A stretch of 64,000 bases of DNA from a virus (lineage: Duplodnaviria > Caudoviricetes), in IMG/VR virus record IMGVR_UViG_3300020048_000088, positions 17,314 to 81,313 of that record; one strand, given 5' to 3'. Below the pieces are notes generated by a model, which searched no databases, was not told where the DNA came from, and worked only from the letters and a program-made list of their open reading frames with translations. This document shows, in pieces, positions 14,355 to 48,677 of this stretch (the first letter of the stretch is position 1; the number at the start of each line of letters is the position of its first letter). The position numbers and the translations under genes are program-made.

Positions 14355-17246
14355 CTATTTGGTGCGGAAGTCTTCCACTCCCTCCGCTGTCAGCTTTTCA
14401 AGGCTGAAGCGAAAGACTCTCGACTGGCCCGTCGCCTTCAGCGGCGAACCAGCGCATACCTTGTCCATGGTGGGTGGGAACTTGCCCATGGCCACGATGA
14501 ACGCCTCACCCGATGTGTAGTACGGCTCCATGCCGGTACGCCTGCACCAGGTGAAATACTTCACAAACATTTCGCGCATCCGCAGCTCGATGTAGCCATC
14601 CTTGATGATGTAGTCGCGACCCTCCTGCATGTGGCAGTCGGACTCCGACGGCTCCGAGCGGGAGATCAGCGACAGGTCGTTGAACATCTTTCCCGCTTCT
14701 GACTGGGCGGCGGCGCTCAGCTCGACCTTGTGCTCATGGATGGCGCGCTTGAGCACCGCGATCGGCTCATTGAACTCGTCACCGAATACAGAGGTCAGGA
14801 CGCCGTCAAGGTAGTTCAGACCTTCCAGCACGATGGCGAGGTTGTAGACCTGTCGGTCGTGCACCGAGCGCGGGAACGAGGCTCGCAAGGCGTCGCGGAT
14901 TGGCTCCAACGCCGCTCTGCGGGTCTCGATCGTCTCGGAGAACGCGAACTTCAGGATCAGTCGTCCCAGCGAGCCCATGTAGTCCTGACCCTTCAGGGCC
15001 AGGTCCCATGCCTCTTTGCGCTCCACCGTGTCGGCGATGTTGAACGCGACCGGCAGGCTGCGCTGCACGATTGCGGTCTGCATCTCCTGGGCTTCTGCCA
15101 GGTACACGATGGGGGTGCTGAAACTGAACTCGGTGATGTCCTTGAACGACGACGACGCGCTCGAGTTGCCCATGGCGCCAGAGGCGCCCTTGCCCTGGTT
15201 GTAGGCAAGCCTGAACGCCTGCAGCAGGAAGTCTGTGCGGACTGGCCCCATCTCGGCGGGCTTGTACTCGTCGAGGATCAGCGGGATGCTGCAGGAGCCT
15301 GTGAGCGAGGACTTCAGGGCATACGCCGTGGTGACCGTGCCGCATGACTGCAGCTTGGGCTCCCGGGTGAACGTGTGCATGCGGCCCAACAACTGCGACG
15401 TCAGGGTCTTGCCGCTGCCGGCCGGGCCATTCGGGTGCAGCAACGGGAACTGGCTGAACGCCTGGTGGTAGAACTGCTTGTGAAAGCAGCTCACAAACCA
15501 CCCGAGCATTTGCGCCATCGTTGTTGGGGAGTTGATCGTGAGCAGGGCGTGTACCCAGGCTCTCGTCTCCGGCGTGTCCTGCAGGGGCTCGGCCCGGTGC
15601 AGGTCCGAGTCGAAGATGGCGTTGGTTGTCATCAGCGGCTGGTAGGTGTATTCAGTGGAGCAGGTCTTGTAAATCTGCCCCGGCGTCACCCAAACAACGT
15701 CCTTCTTGATGCTGTCGACTTCCTCTGGGTCCTGGAGAACCTCAAGGCCCTCTTTGTGAATTGCGTAGATCACTCTTTCCTCCTTGTTTGCCCGACGTGT
15801 CAGGATGAGCTTGACTGCTCCCGCCTGGGTATCGGAGCCTGAAAAAATACCCCCGTAGGCTGAGCAGTACTGCGTCAGCGTGCTACGGGAGACGAACGCC
15901 TTGTCGGCGACTGTGTGGCGGCCCCGGGGCCTGCCATCGCTGAAGATGTTGACGACCAGACCAAGGTTGGTGTTGTTGCCACCCCCGTCCCTGTGCGCCT
16001 CCTTCAGATTGGCTGGCACCGTCCAACCCACGTTGCTGATGGACTTGGGGCCTTCCTGCGAGGGCTTGATCACACCCTCCTTACGCACCTTCAGGCCTTC
16101 CTCAAGCGCCTTGTTCGCAAACGAGAGGCTTTCGGACTCCTCTTTGGTCAGCGGCGCGTCGTCTTCAGCCTCTTCCATTGAGTCACCGCCGGTGAGCGGG
16201 CCGCCCTTGGTGTCAAGGTCTGGCGTGGTTTGCTCGGGGTCGAGCAGAGACCGGACGCCCCCTGGCGAGAACGTGTAGCAGGGGTTGCCGTGGGTGTAGT
16301 CCAGCATCCTGCGCAGTTCCTCCTTGCGCTTGCGAGGTGAGCCGTACCGGGATGAGTCCCCCGAATGGGTTTTGCAAAGGCCCTCACAGGCTTTGACAAA
16401 CTCGTCGGCGTCCTTGCCCAGCGCATTGGCCGTGATGGCCAGCTGCATGGCGATTTTCTGGAAGCCCATTCCCGGCAGAATCCCCTCGCCGCGCATGATC
16501 ATTTCCACCGATGGGGGCAGGGCGCCGTTGAACTTGCGCAACAGCTCCTCGTCGGCGACTGCCGACTTGGCTCTGCGCGCCAACTGCTCCTTGACCTTCT
16601 CGGAGTACTTCATGAACATGGCGGCCAGATCGGTGCTGATCGCCGGGGCTGTCGTCGTGACTGGCGCGCGGGGTGCGCTGCACAGCTCGTCGAACAGCTC
16701 TGGCGTCATGCTGCGCGCCTCGTCCAGGGTGATGGGCACCTTGTACTTGTCGTTGCTGCGCTTGACGCCACAGGTTCTCCACATGCGCCCCTTGCGCCCC
16801 GTGTAGATGCGCAGGTCCATCGTGTCGACAGCCATTTCCATGGCCATCTCACGGTAGATGTAAGGGAGCCCGATGATGCCGTCTTTGGGGACCTTGCTCA
16901 TCATGACTTCCTGTGGGACTTCGATGTGAAAGCCTCGGCCCCCCGTCGCGAAAAGTCTCAGGCAACCCATGGGGACGCCTTTTTCTTCAAGGGTCTCCAG
17001 GAGCTTCTGAAATTCAGGGATGGTGGTGCCGACGCTCTCGGCGTCGAAGTCGAAGTACATACTTCCTCTGTACTTCATCTTGGTGTATTCGTCGCTGCCC
17101 CAGTCATCTGAGGGCACCGAATCAGCGTCGAGCACGGTCACGAATGCGGGGTTGCGCTCTTTCAGAATCAGGTCGCGGTGCTCGGACAGGCCCTCGCGCC
17201 AGGCGTCATCACCCCCTACCTGCTGGTACCAAAAGTAAAAGGACAT
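14355..17246 (-). CDS. Primase-helicase fusion (AEP primase + C-terminal P-loop NTPase)
   Basis: YFDFD and TGGRGFH (AEP motifs I/II); GPAGSGKT Walker A; LILDE Walker B; start set at ATG 17246. Confidence 0.85.
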   Translation of the reverse strand: MSFYFWYQQVGGDDAWREGLSEHRDLILKERNPAFVTVLDADSVPSDDWGSDEYTKMKYRGSMYFDFDAESVGTTIPEFQKLLETLEEKGVPMGCLRLFATGGRGFHIEVPQEVMMSKVPKDGIIGLPYIYREMAMEMAVDTMDLRIYTGRKGRMWRTCGVKRSNDKYKVPITLDEARSMTPELFDELCSAPRAPVTTTAPAISTDLAAMFMKYSEKVKEQLARRAKSAVADEELLRKFNGALPPSVEMIMRGEGILPGMGFQKIAMQLAITANALGKDADEFVKACEGLCKTHSGDSSRYGSPRKRKEELRRMLDYTHGNPCYTFSPGGVRSLLDPEQTTPDLDTKGGPLTGGDSMEEAEDDAPLTKEESESLSFANKALEEGLKVRKEGVIKPSQEGPKSISNVGWTVPANLKEAHRDGGGNNTNLGLVVNIFSDGRPRGRHTVADKAFVSRSTLTQYCSAYGGIFSGSDTQAGAVKLILTRRANKEERVIYAIHKEGLEVLQDPEEVDSIKKDVVWVTPGQIYKTCSTEYTYQPLMTTNAIFDSDLHRAEPLQDTPETRAWVHALLTINSPTTMAQMLGWFVSCFHKQFYHQAFSQFPLLHPNGPAGSGKTLTSQLLGRMHTFTREPKLQSCGTVTTAYALKSSLTGSCSIPLILDEYKPAEMGPVRTDFLLQAFRLAYNQGKGASGAMGNSSASSSFKDITEFSFSTPIVYLAEAQEMQTAIVQRSLPVAFNIADTVERKEAWDLALKGQDYMGSLGRLILKFAFSETIETRRAALEPIRDALRASFPRSVHDRQVYNLAIVLEGLNYLDGVLTSVFGDEFNEPIAVLKRAIHEHKVELSAAAQSEAGKMFNDLSLISRSEPSESDCHMQEGRDYIIKDGYIELRMREMFVKYFTWCRRTGMEPYYTSGEAFIVAMGKFPPTMDKVCAGSPLKATGQSRVFRFSLEKLTAEGVEDFRTK

Positions 17247-17415
17247 TTGAATGCCCTTAATTGGTATCAGGTGTGGGTGTGTGAGGCTGAAACGCCCGTA
17301 GCAAAGCCCCCTGCTGGGGGCCGTTGGAACTATCAAGAGCGCCGGTGGCGCCCTGGTTTTGGTTTGTCATAAAAGCCCAATATTCTTATTATTGTTAGGG
17401 CTCAGAGGGGATCGA

Positions 17416-42282: not shown

Positions 42283-42429
42283 TTTGAACTCCGAATTGAT
42301 CCCAGATTGGGATCGGGTTTGTGCTTAAAATTTAAGCAAAAATTTCAAATTAGGGCCGTTTTTGGGAAACTTTTCAGTATTATGTTAAGTTAAATATCGA
42401 ATCAGCCCTGGCCCCAACAAGGTCGGCGC

Positions 42430-42957
42430 TTAGGTCATGGCCAACTTTTCAACCCCAACAACGACAGCGAACTCGCCATGGTTCTCGACTGCGAACCGGT
42501 TGTAGGCATCCCCAGCGTCCTTGATTGAGTCGAAAAACCCAATGTGAACCGTAACGTTGTTGAGGCTGGCACTGGCCCGCCATTTACCATGGGCGGGGGA
42601 CCAGAAAACACCCTTGACACCGGACTTACTCCTGCGTGAAACACCTTGGTTACGGCGGTTCTCCTGCCTTGTGGCCTCAACAAGGTTAAGCAAAGCGTTG
42701 TTGGACTTGATTCTGTCCTTGTGATCGAGTTCCAGTTTCGGCCACACGCCATGAACGTAGAACCAGGCCAACCTGTGCGCTTTGTATTTGACTCTGCCAA
42801 TGTTTATCACGACGTACCCTTTCGGGTCAGTGAAGCCAGCCACATCTCCAGCTTTAACTCGGTAACTGCGTGGAGCAATCCACGTGAAAACTCCGCTGGT
42901 TTCGTTGTAATGCAGGAGTTGCTTTAGCAACTCGTTTGTAAGCTCATATCTGGTCAT
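42430..42957 (-). CDS. HNH homing endonuclease with AP2 domain
   Basis: YKAHRLAWFYVHG..LDHKDRIKSNN..NL (HNH_3 type); SGVKGVFW..GKWRA (AP2). Confidence 0.92.
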   Translation of the reverse strand: MTRYELTNELLKQLLHYNETSGVFTWIAPRSYRVKAGDVAGFTDPKGYVVINIGRVKYKAHRLAWFYVHGVWPKLELDHKDRIKSNNALLNLVEATRQENRRNQGVSRRSKSGVKGVFWSPAHGKWRASASLNNVTVHIGFFDSIKDAGDAYNRFAVENHGEFAVVVGVEKLAMT

Positions 42958-42983
42958 TTTTGACTCTCCTTATGGGTGCAATT

Positions 42984-43050
42984 CACCCCCAATACTGACA
43001 GGGTCTAATGTCCGTGGTCAATCGCCAGGGAGCTATCAGTATTGGGGGTG
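42984..43050. repeat. 15-bp perfect inverted repeat
   Basis: CACCCCCAATACTGA (42984-42998) / TCAGTATTGGGGGTG (43036-43050). Confidence 0.85.
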
Positions 43051-43700
43051 GCCCGCTTGCGCAGGCCGGTGCTGGTTACGTCGATCCAGCTTCATGTCGA
43101 ACGTGGTGTCCGAATGGTTACGGACTTGACAATGAATTGCTCGGGCAATCGAACCCGCCAACATTCAGGACGTGGTCTATCCTGCTGCGATCCTTGAAGC
43201 AGCTATCACCCCCAACATTGACGTTGTTGGGGCTTACGTGGTGCGATAACGGGCGCACCCCCGACAAGTTATTGAGCCGCTTACCCGAACGATTTACCAG
43301 CGTCCCCACTGTGCACACAGACCTATGGCAGGTTACGACCAGCTGTGGAGGGAAGGGGGATAGATATGGAACGTGATTGCTCACGGGCATCCTTGCGGAT
43401 GCTTTAGTTGTCGTTGGGATAGTAGACACTCGCCAGCCCCGGCAGTTAGCCGGAACGGGGGTCTCGAACTTGTACGATTGGCCACCCAGCACGCGGAATC
43501 CCGGCGTACTCAATGGCCCCGTTTTGGCAAAATGCTATAGGAACACCCCACTCACGGCGGTGTTTATGGCGCACTGTGCCAAATACGGTTACACCCAAGC
43601 CGCCAGGCGCGATCACCGTGATTAGACGGAGTTATGGCGTGAGGCTTGAGTGAGAATTTAAATTGTGGAATTGACTACCGCCCCAAAAACGGTTACGCCG

Positions 43701-43920
43701 CCGCGCCGACTATCGGCGGGGCGCTTATGCGTGAAACCCGCGCCGACTATCGGCGGGGGTTACAGTTGCGGGGGTTTCGTTGCCGCGCCGACAGTGTATC
43801 GGCGGCGGGTAAAATGCCGCGCCGCGCCGCCAGTGTATCGGCGGGGGCGGCGGCAAAATCAAAGCGGATAAATGAAATTTCAAGGGATAGCGCGAAACCC
43901 GCACCGACTATCGGCGGGGG
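43701..43920. repeat. Array of five palindromic units CCGC(G/A)CCG(A/C)C-TA/AGTGTA-TCGGCGG
   Basis: Copies at 43701, 43738, 43783, 43822, 43899. Confidence 0.85.
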
Positions 43921-44005
43921 TTTTAGCGTATCCGTTGCCCCATGTAATCACGGGGCGGCGGCGGCTTTTGCGGCGGCGGCGGGGGCGGCCATGTTGCAGC
44001 AAAGC

Positions 44006-44043
44006 GGCGGCATTTATAAGGGTTATCCCTTATAAATGCCGCC
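44006..44043. repeat. 17-bp perfect inverted repeat with 4-nt loop
   Basis: GGCGGCATTTATAAGGG-TTAT-CCCTTATAAATGCCGCC. Confidence 0.9.
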
Positions 44044-44069
44044 CCATAACGGGGCGGCGGGGGCGGGGG

Positions 44070-45044
44070 TTAAACCGTTGCGGCGGCTTTTGCGGCGGCT
44101 TTTGCTTTTGCCGCTTTGCTTATCACGTTACGGGCGGCGGCTTTTGCTTCGGCGGCATATGCGGCGGCTTCGGTATCGGTAACCGTTGCGGCGGCTTCGG
44201 TACGGGCGGCGGCGGCTTCGGCGGCTTCGGCTTCGGCTTTTGCTTTATCGGTTACCCGTTGCCCTTGCATAATGGCGGCGGCGGCAATGACCCCCGCCAC
44301 AATAGCGGGGTTACGCTCAAAAGCGGCGGCAAGCATATCTGCAACGGCGGCGGCGGCTTCGGCGGGGGCGGGGGCGGCGGCGGCTACTTCGGCGGCGGCT
44401 TTTGCAAGGGCGGCAACGGCGGCGGCAACGGGGGATAACCCGCCCGTTGCGGCTTCGGCGGCTTCGGCTTCGCTGGCGGGGGCGGCTTCGGCGGCTTCGG
44501 CTTCGGCTTTTGCGGCTTTTGCTTCGGCGGCTTTTGCCTTACGCTCAAGGGCGGCGGCTTCGGCGGCGGCGGCTTCGGTAACCGTTGCAACGGCGGCGGC
44601 TTCGCAAAATGCCGCAATGGCGGCGGCTTCGGCGGCGGCGGCTTCGGTTTTGCCGCCCCGCTTTGCGATACCCTTACGAGTATCCGATACCCGCCCCGCA
44701 TAGTATGCAAGGGCGGGGGCGGCGGCAATGGCGGCGGCAAAAGCGGCGGCAACGATACGGGCGGCGGCGGCTTGTTTCCCCGTTGCAGGGAAACCATGTA
44801 CGGCGGCGGCGGCTATTTCAAGCGGCGGCATATTGCCGCTTTCAATGGCAAGATATACCCCGCGCCCCGTTGCAAGGGCGGCGGCTTCGGTACGGGCGGC
44901 GGCATTACCCGCCATTGTCTCAAGGGCGGCGGCAATGAAGCGTTTAGGGGCGGCTTCGGTACGGGCGGCGGCTTTTGCGGCTTCGGCGGCGGCAATGGCG
45001 GCGGGGGTTGCAAGGGCAACGGCGGGGGCGGCGGGGGTTTTCAT
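44070..45044 (-). CDS. Extremely Ala-rich (about half Ala) helical protein of unknown function
   Basis: 324 aa from ATG 45044 with AGGAAA SD; recurring AAARTEAA and ATVT motifs; distinct codon usage. Confidence 0.65.
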   Translation of the reverse strand: MKTPAAPAVALATPAAIAAAEAAKAAARTEAAPKRFIAAALETMAGNAAARTEAAALATGRGVYLAIESGNMPPLEIAAAAVHGFPATGKQAAAARIVAAAFAAAIAAAPALAYYAGRVSDTRKGIAKRGGKTEAAAAEAAAIAAFCEAAAVATVTEAAAAEAAALERKAKAAEAKAAKAEAEAAEAAPASEAEAAEAATGGLSPVAAAVAALAKAAAEVAAAAPAPAEAAAAVADMLAAAFERNPAIVAGVIAAAAIMQGQRVTDKAKAEAEAAEAAAARTEAAATVTDTEAAAYAAEAKAAARNVISKAAKAKAAAKAAATV

Positions 45045-45326
45045 GGCAGTGTTTCCTATATGTTCTATCACCTACGCAAAACGCGCACCCATAACGCGAG
45101 AAGCCGCGCAAAGGGGGGAAGGGGAAATTTTGAACATAAGATAATGTAGCATAGTTATTTAATGAACTATTGCGTTAGATCAACAAAATAAAAGTTATTT
45201 AACTTTATTTTATGTCAAAACTATGTTAGTAAAATTGACGTATACCCATTTTCCGAAGGAATTTTTTGACCTGGGTTCCAGGTAGCCCCAAACAAAATTC
45301 AAATTTTCAAAACTTTTCTATCACTG

Positions 45327-45335
45327 TGTTATACT
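45327..45335 (+). promoter_or_regulatory. Extended -10 promoter TGnTATACT, probably yielding a leaderless mRNA
   Basis: TGTTATACT followed by 6 nt then ATG 45342; AT-rich upstream. Confidence 0.6.
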
Positions 45336-45341
45336 AAAGGT

Positions 45342-45812
45342 ATGAAACTTAACACAGCTATTACAAAAGTCCTCACCAAGGAGTTGGTTGAGCCCCACGT
45401 CGACGATCTCCGCGAGGGCCGGGTCACCCAGCGAGCACTGGCAGAGAGGTTCGGGGTCAGTCAGGGCGCTCTCAGCCTGTTCCTGAGCCGGCACAATTAC
45501 CTCGAGGGGTTCACTCACGGTAGAGGCGGACGGCACCCCACCAGCACTCCCGAAATGGCCAAGGCTGTTGAGCTGGCCTCCCAGCCCAACGCGAACATTG
45601 CCAAGATCGCGCGTGATCACGGGCTGGACTATCTGGCAGTGCAGCGCAGAGTTAAGAAGCGGGAGGTCAAGGCCGCGCGGGAGGCCAAACCAACGCCTGC
45701 AGCGCCGCCACCTACACCTGCAAACCTCGATGAAACGCTGCTGCTGTGCATCATCGCGGAGCCCCATCGGTTGGCCCGAGCCGCAGCCGTACTGAGGGCA
45801 GCTGGCATCTAA
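45342..45812 (+). CDS. Tandem helix-turn-helix DNA-binding protein
   Basis: TQRALAERFGVSQGALSLFLSR and NIAKIARDHGLDYLAVQRRVKK. Confidence 0.75.
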   Translation: MKLNTAITKVLTKELVEPHVDDLREGRVTQRALAERFGVSQGALSLFLSRHNYLEGFTHGRGGRHPTSTPEMAKAVELASQPNANIAKIARDHGLDYLAVQRRVKKREVKAAREAKPTPAAPPPTPANLDETLLLCIIAEPHRLARAAAVLRAAGI

Positions 45813-45848
45813 ACCCAAACAACAACAAGACTCCGGAAAGGGGCGCAA

Positions 45849-46193
45849 ATGGGAACAAGAAACAAGGTCTACAGAGCCACGAGGATCACCTCAACACCGT
45901 CGTGGTCCGACGAGACCGCCATCGCCAAGGTCTACGCCACCGCCAGCCGCATCAAGCTGCAGGCAGGCATCAACGTCGCCGTAGACCATGTGTACCCGCT
46001 GGGCGGTGACACAGTCAGCGGGCTGCACGTCCCGGGCAATCTCCAGATACTCACCATTCGTGAGAACTGCCGCAAGGGGCGCCGGCTGCCCGGCAGCCGC
46101 AAGGCCGAACTGTGGGACACGACAACGGCGTGGGTGCCCACGACCGAGCGAGACCCGAACGAGATGATCCTGAGAGGAATGCTCAACACTTGA
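45849..46193 (+). CDS. Short HNH endonuclease next to the terminase genes
   Basis: TPSW..VDHVYPL.G..VSGLHVPGNLQIL..REN.RK. Confidence 0.8.
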   Translation: MGTRNKVYRATRITSTPSWSDETAIAKVYATASRIKLQAGINVAVDHVYPLGGDTVSGLHVPGNLQILTIRENCRKGRRLPGSRKAELWDTTTAWVPTTERDPNEMILRGMLNT

Positions 46194-46254: not shown

Positions 46255-46545
46255 ATGAAACACAAATTCCAAGACCCATACTTCGAGCAGCTCGCCAAGA
46301 GACTTGTCACGCTCGACACTGCGGCCAAGCCGCGCCCCAAGTTCCAGACGATCAAGGCGTTCTTCGGAGACAACGGCATAGACCTTGACAAGTCGGCCCG
46401 AGAAATCCTTGTGGACCTCGCGCACCGCGAGGCAACGCGCCGTGGCCTGCCGGAAGCCACCAACGGCAAGAAGGTTGTCTTTCACCCAGTGGTTCTGAAG
46501 CAACTGCTGAGCTTGGTGACGCCTGAGCGCAGCGCTCGTGTTTAA
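46255..46545 (+). CDS. Hypothetical protein
   Basis: 96 aa, overlaps terS start. Confidence 0.55.
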   Translation: MKHKFQDPYFEQLAKRLVTLDTAAKPRPKFQTIKAFFGDNGIDLDKSAREILVDLAHREATRRGLPEATNGKKVVFHPVVLKQLLSLVTPERSARV

Positions 46546-46978
46546 TCCCAACGTCGAGGACGTCTTCGCCAAAGACAAGGCGAAGCCCGCACCAACGCCA
46601 CAAGGCTCACTTGAAAACATGCCTGTGGATCAGCTGCTGGAGTTGAGGCGCCAGATCGAGGCGCTGCTGCCGGTCAAGGACATCAAGGACCTGAACCTGT
46701 CGCGTGAGCTGGTGCTGCAGGTGCAGACCTTGCAGGCGCTACAGCAGCGCGTGCTGTCGGACACCGAAATACCTGCCAACCAGCAGTCCCAGTGCGCCAA
46801 CAGCCTGTCGGCCGCACTGGTCAACCTCGTCAAGCTGCAGACCGACGTCTACACGTCCGAGCGCATGAAGATCATCGAGTCCATCCTGGTGGACTGCATC
46901 AGAGACTTGCCCATGGAAGTTCAGGAGGAGTTTCTGGAGCGGTACGAGACTGCGCTGGGGAAAGCCGATGGCTCTTAA
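46538..46978 (+). CDS. terS: Probable terminase small subunit
   Basis: 146-aa helical protein immediately upstream of and overlapping terL; positional call. Confidence 0.6.
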   Translation: MFNPNVEDVFAKDKAKPAPTPQGSLENMPVDQLLELRRQIEALLPVKDIKDLNLSRELVLQVQTLQALQQRVLSDTEIPANQQSQCANSLSAALVNLVKLQTDVYTSERMKIIESILVDCIRDLPMEVQEEFLERYETALGKADGS

Positions 46979-48677
46979 CGACACCCAAAAGCACCACCTC
47001 GCGCGAATCAGGGCTGCCACAACCAACAAGTTGAACCGGACAGACCTTGCCAAGTGGATTGAGGAGAACACCTTCATCAATGGCCGGCCCTTCAGCTTCA
47101 ACAAGCACGAGTACCAGCACAGGATTCTGACGGACAGCTCGCCGGAGCTTGTGATACGCAAGTCGGCGCAGACGGGTATCTCGGAGATGTCGATGCGGAT
47201 GGCTCTGGCGCTGATCATGGTGATGCCGGGGGCGTTTCGCATCGGGTACACGTTCCCAAGCGCCGGGTTCGCGTCGAACTACGCCAAGACCCGTCTGAAC
47301 CCCATCATTTTGGATTCACCGGCGCTGCGCGCGGCCATCAGCACCGCCGACATCGACTCCAGCGAGATCAAGACGTTCGGGCGCGGCAAGGAGCTGTACT
47401 TCAAGGGAGCGGCAGTAGGAAACGCCGCGATTTCCACGACGCTTGACTTGCTGGTGCATGACGAATTGAGCTTCTCCGACCCCGAGATCATCGGCGACTA
47501 CTGGTCGCGCGTGCTGCATTCGGATTACAAGTGGCGCATCTCCCTCAGCACCCCCACGTTCATTGGCGATGCCATCGACCAGTCGTTCACCAACAGCCGC
47601 AGGCACTGGAATTTCTGCAAGTGCGAGCACTGCAACCACCAGTTTGTGCCGGACTACTACAAGAATGTCCAGATTCCGGGCTACTTGGGAGAGCTTGACC
47701 AGATCACCAAGAGCAATCTGCACACCGTGAGGTACAAGGAGGCGCAGTTCTTGTGCCCGAAGTGCTGGCAGCCGACTTCTCTGCTACCTGAGCACCGGGA
47801 GTGGGTGTGTGAGAACCCCACCGAGAATCACGTCGCTGCCGGGTACCAGGTGCAGCCGTTTGACGCGCCGCAGATCGTTTCGACACCAAGTTTGGTGGAT
47901 GCGTCGACGAAATACGCTTCCAAGGCCAAATTCAAGCAGTTTTCGCTCGGATTGCCTGCAACGGACAGCGAAAGTGGCTTCACAGAGGAAGAAATCGACG
48001 GAATTGGCATAGAAATGGCCCAAAGTCCCTTCCATTCGCACGTTTTGGGGGTCGATTTGGGCATGTATTGCCACTTTGCAGTGGGCGGAATGGCTATGGA
48101 TGGCACCCTGGTGGTGGTGCATTACGAGCGCGTGGCGTTGAAGGACTTCAGGGTGCGCTACGCGGCGCTTGTGGCGCAGTACCGGATCACCGTCAAGGTC
48201 AGCGATATTCAGCCCTACACCGAGCTGATCATGTCACTCAGCGAGACGGACCCGCGGCTTTTTGCTGCGCGTTACGTGACGCGCAACGGACTTGAGGTCT
48301 ACGACTTGAAGCAGCAGGAGGCGGACGTCGAAAACGCCATTGAAGGTGTGCGCGAGGTGAGCGTGAACCGAAACGGCTTGTTCGACAAGCTGCTGTCGGT
48401 GATCCGGCCTGCGGAGGGCGACGAGTCAGGCATCAGGATTCGCAAGTGCGGCGACTGGGCGCTTCTGAAGCAGCACATGCTGGCGATGCGCAGGGGGCAG
48501 GGCCAGTTGCGCAACGGCGAGTTCTCCAGTTTCTGGACGAAGCCACCGGACGGCCAAGACCACTACTTCCACGCGCTGGGGTATTTGTGGGTGGCTTCGC
48601 AGATGCGCGGCGTGGCGTTTGCCGGCGGCGCCATTGCGCCGGCGATCCGTAAATTCAAGGTGAAGGCAAAAACATGA
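46968..48677 (+). CDS. terL: Terminase large subunit, lambda gpA-like
   Basis: KSAQTGISE Walker A, VHDE Walker B, LSTPT coupling motif, CEHC/CPKC, nuclease GVDLG..DHYFHA. Confidence 0.9.
   Translation: MALNDTQKHHLARIRAATTNKLNRTDLAKWIEENTFINGRPFSFNKHEYQHRILTDSSPELVIRKSAQTGISEMSMRMALALIMVMPGAFRIGYTFPSAGFASNYAKTRLNPIILDSPALRAAISTADIDSSEIKTFGRGKELYFKGAAVGNAAISTTLDLLVHDELSFSDPEIIGDYWSRVLHSDYKWRISLSTPTFIGDAIDQSFTNSRRHWNFCKCEHCNHQFVPDYYKNVQIPGYLGELDQITKSNLHTVRYKEAQFLCPKCWQPTSLLPEHREWVCENPTENHVAAGYQVQPFDAPQIVSTPSLVDASTKYASKAKFKQFSLGLPATDSESGFTEEEIDGIGIEMAQSPFHSHVLGVDLGMYCHFAVGGMAMDGTLVVVHYERVALKDFRVRYAALVAQYRITVKVSDIQPYTELIMSLSETDPRLFAARYVTRNGLEVYDLKQQEADVENAIEGVREVSVNRNGLFDKLLSVIRPAEGDESGIRIRKCGDWALLKQHMLAMRRGQGQLRNGEFSSFWTKPPDGQDHYFHALGYLWVASQMRGVAFAGGAIAPAIRKFKVKAKT

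Follow-up and report, generated by a model that had tools for sequence, protein, structure and literature searches.

Why should a phage genome dotted with common restriction sites contain a stretch of about 1.5 kb that is practically free of them? The stretch lies at 43660-45150 of a 64,000-nt piece of DNA (hereafter the window: bases 17314-81313 of the 81,313-bp IMG/VR virus record IMGVR_UViG_3300020048_000088, Caudoviricetes), which comes from a phage whose only source is metagenomes. It is occupied by the leftward gene of an alanine-rich orphan protein, called gene X below, and by a set of hairpins at the 3' side of this gene. A preliminary description of the locus saw in it a leader that is purged of recognition sites, enters the cell first, and directs the synthesis of a protective protein before the rest of the genome follows. 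Our analysis bears out the shortage of sites and leads to a different explanation, to which we give about even credence: the desert is mainly a by-product of an extreme, heritable and cryptically simple style of DNA that covers gene X and its 3' hairpins.

Missing restriction sites and a small DNA vocabulary

Eight motifs were scored: GATC, TCGA, CCGG, AGCT, CCWGG, GANTC, GGNCC and GGCC. Within 43660-45150 the first seven are absent, as had been noticed by eye, and GGCC is found once, against 4-10 copies per motif expected by scaling from the remaining window. A slightly longer span, 43612-45177, holds the same single site. In the complete genome the eight motifs, pooled, have a mean spacing of 29 nt, and the two largest gaps adjoin each other at the desert (43987-45178, 1191 nt, and 43611-43987, 376 nt), whereas the third largest is 201 nt. 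Dinucleotide-preserving shuffles of the region give 60 ± 8 sites versus the one observed, and for the non-coding part alone (43660-44069) they give 20.6, again versus one.

Amino-acid composition, the trivial explanation that was to be checked against shuffled controls, is insufficient. With the protein fixed and codons drawn at genome frequencies, 47 sites are expected in gene X (minimum 28 in 2000 simulations), and with its own codons permuted among synonymous positions, 20 (minimum 6); it contains none. The desert goes beyond both amino-acid composition and codon usage. Under the synonymous permutation, codon usage accounts for the absence of GATC, TCGA and AGCT, and leaves unexplained that of CCGG (6.9 expected), GGCC (9.4), GCWGC (13.0) and CCSGG (4.3), each of them observed zero times. 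These four are missing because the choice of the alanine codon obeys a near-deterministic context rule: it is GCA in 18 of 18 cases before AA or AC, GCG in three of three before GG, and GCC in 75 of 77 before GC, GCC being the codon used in all other contexts. In the rest of the genome the ratios of observed to expected counts are 1.00 for CCGG, 0.93 for GATC, 1.08 for AGCT, 1.24 for TCGA and 0.84 for GGCC, so that these 4-mers are not avoided there. Genome-wide, some 6-mers are under-represented, namely CACGTG (2 observed vs 16 expected), TTCGAA (2 vs 15) and AACGTT (1 vs 12), and these are candidate host restriction specificities.

The codon contrast pointed out in the preliminary description is equally real. 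Gene X uses GCC for 80% of its alanines (genome, 41%), GAA for 89% of glutamates (28%), AAA for 84% of lysines (24%), CTT for 90% of leucines (17%), GTT for 53% of valines (18%) and CGT for 62% of arginines (11%), and also GAT in four of four, CAA in three of three and TAT in three of four cases; the genome elsewhere prefers GAG, AAG, CTG, GTC or GTG, CGC, GAC, CAG and TAC. In a screen based on two codon ratios, no open reading frame (ORF) of at least 200 codons in the genome resembles gene X, and the three ORFs of 70-88 codons that pass are likely spurious. What most of the favoured codons (GCC, ACC, CCC, GTT, CTT, ATT, GAA, AAA, CAA) have in common is a third base that copies the second. This is the case at 71% of the four-fold degenerate sites of gene X, or at 86% when a copy of the next base is also counted, versus 25-31% in terL, portal and PolA genes, and homodinucleotide content reaches its genome maximum at the desert.

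The outcome is a very small vocabulary with many repeats of short units, used in the coding part and also in its non-coding 3' flank. Gene X contains 294 distinct 6-mers versus 438 ± 10 under synonymous permutation, and 453 distinct 8-mers versus 661. Among trinucleotides, CAG/CTG (3 vs 21 expected), CCA/TGG (9 vs 26) and CAC/GTG (2 vs 14) are depleted. Non-palindromic words are hit as well: the absence of CCGG and GGCC is matched by that of CCAA (0 vs 9.9), CAGC (1 vs 14), AGGC (1 vs 10.5), CACC (0 vs 5.6) and CCAC. When all 4-mers with an expectation of at least 2 under genome codon usage are considered, 34 of the 92 non-palindromic words (37%) are lost. Some palindromes, on the other hand, are kept or enriched, such as TGCA (8 vs 4), GTAC (4 vs 2), ATAT (4 vs 2) and TTGCAA (four copies). 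This is a general collapse of vocabulary, in which palindromes are hit somewhat harder, and it does not look like a purge aimed at recognition sites, as was proposed earlier. Such a vocabulary has no means of spelling most 4-bp palindromes, nor a third of ordinary 4-mers, and the desert would be mainly its by-product.

Gene X and its relatives

The protein contains 148 alanines, 28 glutamates, 4 aspartates, 19 lysines and 13 arginines, and its net charge is 0. The AlphaFold2 model has a confident N-terminal helical domain with a β-hairpin (predicted local distance difference test score, pLDDT, of 84 when folded alone), followed by long Ala/Glu/Lys helices. Among metagenomic proteins, four share 66-71% identity with it and one shares 42%; in a profile search of 1.8 billion representative proteins, no more than seven members of the family were recovered, the most distant at about 31% identity. 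The ratio of nonsynonymous to synonymous substitution rates (dN/dS) among the closer homologues is 0.22-0.38, and the protein is under purifying selection; together with the confident model of the N-terminal domain, this ratio indicates that gene X is a real gene. Antisense ORFs across it were considered and rejected as genes, as they are open because of composition and their open lengths vary widely between homologues.

Outside this small family gene X has no detectable relatives. It has no match in Pfam or PHROGs and none by tblastn in 50,697 phage records; megablast finds no similar DNA in the phage collection, and a search of the ESM Atlas returns nothing above chance. Structure searches were run with the whole model and with the N-terminal domain. 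Foldseek gives no match at E <= 0.001 in PDB or BFVD, and the best rows of a wide VIA-align search (Z 6.6-7.5) are generic helices. Weaker BFVD rows comprise a cluster of Autographiviridae proteins of unknown function and one cyanophage pre-ejectosome chain; they are too weak to be used. No further family loci turned up in viral contigs searched by profile, or in metagenome contigs searched by profile and by single protein, and a scan of viral contigs with a 16-nt motif produced 52 matches, none of which encodes a relative.

The relatives (numbered L004-L010) show that the style is graded within the family. L010 (31% identity) is written in ordinary codons: alanine makes up 22% of the protein, 10% of its alanine codons are GCC, and there are 24 sites per kb. 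The corresponding values are 36%, 70% and 16 sites per kb in L009 (41% identity), and about 38% alanine with 79-85% GCC in L004-L007, of which only L004 was counted for sites (12 per kb). The window gene stands at the end of the series with 46% alanine, 80% GCC and 0 sites per kb. The third base equals the second at 15% of four-fold sites in L010, 48% in L009, and 62-72% in L004-L008 and the window gene. The style is a heritable trait of the gene X family that strengthens from distant to close relatives, the window copy being extreme. Among individual motifs, GGCC is found 1-2 times versus about 15 expected in L004-L007 and 8 times versus 16 in L008, and L004-L006 are also depleted of GCWGC; AGCT, CCGG, TCGA and GANTC sites are retained in the closer homologues.

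Consider now the unit that would enter first, from a conserved motif upstream of gene X (see below) to where the hairpins end. Across the family it lacks no motif consistently, and relatives of the same architecture are rich in sites in their leading units (17 GGCC in L009; 12 TCGA and 31 GCGC in L010). With style weaker and sites retained in relatives, the site-free leader put forward in the preliminary description is not a conserved trait.

The window protein has 28 alanines more than its close homologues, gained largely at the expense of Ser, Asp, Leu and Met. Protein alignment reveals in-frame indels between relatives in the low-complexity parts. In particular, relative X4 (one contig, depth 5.8) has a 6-nt insertion, two 3-nt deletions and several compensating indels of 1-2 nt.

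Architecture is more durable than style. Down to 31% identity the layout is the same: terL, terS, a few small genes and a helix-turn-helix (HTH) gene, then a divergent intergenic region, then gene X. Past the gene X homologue come 1-1.7 kb of gene-free structured DNA (L004, L009, L010), followed by small early ORFs. The occupant of the slot, however, may change. L003, with a 93%-identical terL, has there an unrelated leftward gene of 175 aa, which was tried as a diverged homologue of gene X and rejected (BLASTP E = 0.07), and the slot is therefore a cassette. The swapped block corresponds to 43240-46187 in the window and 330-3154 in L003, where the 175-aa gene is accompanied by an HTH gene that is also different and by an Ant-like anti-repressor; the layout of divergent promoters is retained. 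Comparison of the two sequences marks 43240-46187 as a putative cassette-exchange hotspot.

The early arm, the hairpin array and a possible genome end

Leftward genes fill the DNA to the left of about 45071, and rightward genes the DNA to the right of 45342. The leftward arm begins with a long array of small ORFs, followed by replication genes (ligase, SNF2 helicase, PolA, C5 methyltransferase, thymidylate synthase and an SbcC-like ATPase). The same arm contains a 993-aa ORF (14355-17336, minus strand) without a Pfam match. Rightward, the order is HTH protein, endonuclease-VII-like protein, probable terS, terL and portal. The nearest cultured relatives of terL are in Vibrio phages of about 83 kb (29% identity) and then in Herelleviridae. 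No family match to the terS candidate is found in Pfam or PHROGs, and the HTH protein is more likely a regulator than the small terminase subunit. No tRNA genes were found in the window. The preliminary description placed the desert just upstream of terS and terL; the neighbourhood is indeed the same, but these genes are 1.5-1.9 kb away, two rightward genes intervene, and gene X is divergent from them. Feature coordinates are collected in Table 1.

Table 1. Features of the gene X locus, in window coordinates
Feature	Position	Strand	Basis or remark
Gene X, 324 aa, 46% Ala	44070..45044	-	ATG 45044-45042, TAA 44072-44070; translation and homologues
Shine-Dalgarno-like AGGAAA, 7 nt before gene X ATG	45052..45057	-	Read from sequence
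Sole eight-motif site in desert (GGCC)	43987..43990	.	Site count
Perfect 17-bp inverted repeat with 4-nt loop, 27 nt after gene X stop; terminator-like hairpin	44006..44043	-	
3' array of GC-rich hairpins (~0.4 kb)	43660..44069	-	Repeat families, RNA fold, conservation
AT-rich (35% GC) divergent intergenic region between gene X and rightward HTH gene	45072..45341	.	
Conserved intergenic motif GGGTATACGTCA; candidate end, cos or operator site	45236..45247	-	Intergenic alignment
Promoter-like TTCAAA-18-TATACT with TG	45306..45335	+	Ends 6 nt before HTH gene ATG
Rightward HTH protein, 156 aa	45342..45812	+	Weak HTH matches in Pfam and PHROGs
Probable small terminase subunit (terS)	46538..46978	+	Position; overlaps terL start; conserved in L003
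Large terminase subunit terL (GpA_ATPase)	46968..48677	+	Family match

The small ORFs of the leftward arm share the sequence TTTGGAGT, which has 12 matches in the window versus 1.6 expected; 11 of these lie at 21421-42038 on the minus strand and stand before eleven small ORFs, suggesting a common ribosome-binding leader of early-arm genes. In the close relatives the gene X homologue, like these early genes of the window, is preceded by a hairpin and the TTTGGAGT leader, and TTTGGAGTTGCC stands before its ATG where the window copy has AGGAAA. The proposal of an early leader stands to this extent, on circumstantial grounds: gene X heads the leftward arm, and its relatives have the early type of leader. 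We infer that gene X is expressed early, and its position suggests a role in host takeover or in entry. Together, gene X and the hairpin array probably make up a single compact unit of transcription with which the early arm begins.

Beyond the terminator-like hairpin, the array contains five GC-rich palindromic hairpins in two families (D8 and D12), with three copies of the CCGCCGATAGTCGGYGCGG type and two of the GCCGATACACTGKCGGC type, and it closes at a conserved AATTCCACAATTTAA. The 421-nt RNA of the array folds at -204 kcal/mol (z = -7.7), and the array is kept in L004, L005 and L007. Most likely, it terminates or insulates the gene X transcript. The sequence that closes it, AGTCAATTCCACAATTTAA (minus strand, 43655-43675), is kept in the same three relatives, and its TTCCACA core bears a loose resemblance to a DnaA box, with agreement at 6 of 9 positions; in T5, such boxes are a mark of the injection-stop region. 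A non-coding stretch of about 650 nt past the array (42984-43640 in the window, 6230-6940 in L004, also in L005 and L007) looks conserved by eye and yielded no ORF, tRNA or Rfam match; an Rfam search of 42300-45500 likewise returned nothing meaningful. Just past this stretch lies a homing-endonuclease-like gene with HNH_3 and AP2 domains (42430-42957, minus strand), in a patch of lower GC content (0.51-0.53).

On the other side of gene X, the intergenic alignment has a single invariant block, CGTCA; it lies within GTAT(A/C)C..CGTCA, 192 nt before the gene X ATG, and L008 and L009 have the motif as well. The promoter-like site on the right is so close to the ATG of the HTH gene that the transcript of the latter is probably leaderless, and this promoter layout recurs in L003.

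Is there a genome end in this region? The 55-nt terminal overlap of the record is an assembly overlap, so that the record ends are uninformative about the ends of virion DNA. All five Logan contigs with an L010-type homologue (P0011) start at one and the same base, ACCGAGACC..., 163 nt upstream of the start codon; they come from five runs, have five lengths, and differ at their other ends. In the close clade, the L007 contig opens with ACCCGTCAC, a position that falls within the conserved intergenic motif. Both starts are compatible with cleavage behind TAT (TAT^AC), possibly a cos-type end, and the shared start hints at a physical DNA end without terminal redundancy next to the gene X homologue; alternatively, the start may represent a graph branch at the border of a variable cassette. 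Contigs from the lineage of the window itself continue across 45072-45341 and break inside gene X, at its repeats. By extension, we infer that a genome end may lie near gene X in the window phage too. Were it at the intergenic motif, the leading unit would hold two sites of the eight-motif set, GATC at 45178 and GGCC at 43987.

Possible causes of the desert

If the desert is mainly a by-product of style, the style would be driven by slippage and intragenic conversion among short GCC, GAA and AAA units, that is, by evolution of cryptic simplicity, which a helical protein tolerant of substitution to alanine would permit. Slippage and conversion are the most likely mutational cause, and what is expected of them is found: k-mer diversity far below that of synonymous permutations, codon homogeneity within runs, and in-frame indels. 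Several observations weigh against this explanation. Slippage is no obvious source of GAT, TAT, CAA and ATT in the unique parts of the gene. The conserved, non-repetitive N-terminal domain has no sites versus 9.4 expected under synonymous permutation and 15.3 under genome codon usage, and most relatives have a milder depletion in this domain too. Palindromic 4-mers are lost more often (7 of 9) than the 34 of 92 non-palindromic ones (Mann-Whitney p = 0.01). At no fewer than five orthologous Ala-Lys positions the window has GCA AAA and all four close homologues have GCC AAA, so that the window lineage moved further in one direction; these changes are parallel, directional and synonymous, and simple inheritance of duplicated units does not explain them. 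The desert also occupies exactly the interval that staged entry would predict, beginning close to the putative end and stopping where the hairpin array stops. Much of this evidence (depletion beyond codon usage that includes the folded domain, the more frequent loss of palindromes, the parallel synonymous changes) speaks for a site-poor leader at the first-entering genome end, maintained by selection and transcribed at once, with gene X protecting or piloting the rest, a model that we find rather unlikely but take seriously. Gene X is first in the early arm and its relatives have the early TTTGGAGT leader; five assemblies end at one base 163 nt upstream of a homologue, and the start of the L007 contig falls within the conserved motif; the 1-1.7 kb of gene-free DNA rich in repeats and palindromes, followed in the window by the HNH gene, resembles the injection-stop (iss) region of T5 (bioRxiv 10.1101/866236); and motif-free leading regions documented in Autographiviridae (PMC12455610) add weight. 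In the same model, selection against palindromic Type II sites and asymmetric Type I, IIS and III sites would be what drives the minimal vocabulary, which we likewise rate as rather unlikely. Against the selected leader stand the same-architecture relatives, whose leading units are not site-poor for any common motif set; the disappearance of a third of ordinary 4-mers; and the GATC between the putative end and gene X. The protective protein of the preliminary description finds no counterpart either: gene X is electrically neutral and has no detectable sequence or fold similarity to Ocr, Ard or other anti-restriction families. Nor does the suggested pairing with the phage's own methyltransferase, since the C5 enzyme is encoded 37 kb away in the replication module, its nearest solved relatives, M.HhaI and M.HaeIII, match it in the catalytic core only, and nothing was found that ties its specificity to the region. 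A fuller version, in which a minimal-vocabulary leader indifferent to particular motifs is combined with a T5-like pause of entry at the hairpin array and with gene X protecting the genome or pulling it in, seems improbable.

Two other explanations are less likely. The style might serve a function of the module at the level of DNA or RNA, to which the missing sites would be incidental, such as a packaging, ejection or injection-stop signal, an insulator based on Rho or a terminator, or a DNA structure of the (GCC)n/(GGC)n kind. The vocabulary common to the coding part and the non-coding flank, the strong structure and conservation of the hairpin array, the C-rich and G-poor transcript (by base counts), and the co-depletion of reverse-complement trinucleotides (r = 0.60 under synonymous permutation) would suit such a function, which is nevertheless quite improbable: strand symmetry is largely gone under the genome-codon null (r = 0.11), L010 retains position and architecture without the style, no Rfam family matches 42300-45500, and no specific signal can be defined. 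The other explanation attributes the codon usage to recent horizontal acquisition from a genome of different composition, or to translational optimisation of a first gene with very high expression, and is very improbable. In its favour, the slot is a swappable cassette, as the unrelated 175-aa gene of L003 demonstrates, and the leading regions of plasmids are codon-adapted rather than motif-depleted (PMC13478746). The style, however, persists and intensifies across divergence down to 42% identity, and so is maintained and not ameliorating; GCC-rich alanine together with A- or T-ending codons elsewhere suits no simple donor composition; and the window has no tRNA genes. Highly expressed bacterial genes usually favour C-ending codons, contrary to GAT, TAT, AAT, CAT, ATT and TTT in gene X. 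Translational optimisation was rejected on these general grounds, with no host comparison behind the rejection.

The idea of a site-free leading end is not new, although the preliminary description took it for a possibly undescribed system. The first-step-transfer DNA of T5 naturally lacks EcoRI sites, and DNA that enters later is protected by a pre-early function (bioRxiv 10.1101/866236). In Autographiviridae, a restriction-modification motif that is absent from the leading region and present elsewhere decides sensitivity, as with Murciavirus and the Type I system Mme2I (PMC12455610). The window locus is similar to the T5 segment in being a short leading segment with first-expressed genes at a genome end, both entry and end being only putative in the window phage, and in having a large non-coding region with repeats, inverted repeats and palindromes after the first gene (43660-44069 in the window, 1-1.7 kb in relatives). 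It differs from T5 in that gene X, the only gene so compared, has no homology to the pre-early A1, A2 and dmp (tblastn, Pfam, PHROGs); the segment is 1.6 kb long versus 9.6 kb; no long terminal repeat has been shown and no clear DnaA boxes are seen; and common 4-mer sites are absent, as opposed to the sites of one enzyme. With T7 (gene 0.3, Ocr) and Murciavirus it would have in common a first-entering region that is variable and includes the first expressed genes. Many 4-5-mers are absent from the putative leader and present elsewhere, a pattern like that described for Murciavirus, but ordinary words are absent too. Unlike Autographiviridae, the window phage has a genome of about 81 kb, PolA, and a GpA-type terminase closest to those of the Vibrio phage and Herelleviridae types. 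Ocr and ArdA, strongly acidic anti-restriction proteins that imitate the charges of DNA, are different: the acidic residues of gene X (28 Glu and 4 Asp) are balanced by 19 Lys and 13 Arg, and the protein is not an Ocr-like DNA mimic.

Another close likeness is to cryptically simple coding sequence produced by replication slippage, such as helical linkers of the TolA domain II type, with similar Ala/Glu/Lys composition, codon homogeneity in runs, low k-mer diversity and in-frame indels. In contrast to ordinary cryptically simple sequence, the style of gene X also covers a conserved folded domain and a non-coding 3' flank, follows a near-deterministic next-base rule, and has grown in one direction within a single phage gene family. 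The locus is a new and extreme example within known themes, the early cassette at a leading end and low-complexity coding; the codon-context rule that underlies it is unexplained, and an orphan family with a fixed position is a good experimental target.

Even if the desert is a by-product, it defines an orphan family with a fixed place, the head of the early arm, in an uncultured group of phages with genomes of about 75-81 kb, and an extreme, near-deterministic codon-context rule, and it advises caution with scans in which avoidance of sites is read as anti-restriction. Should the selected leader prove true, staged entry in the style of T5 and T7 would extend to a new phage group, and low-complexity coding would be a general route to evasion of restriction.

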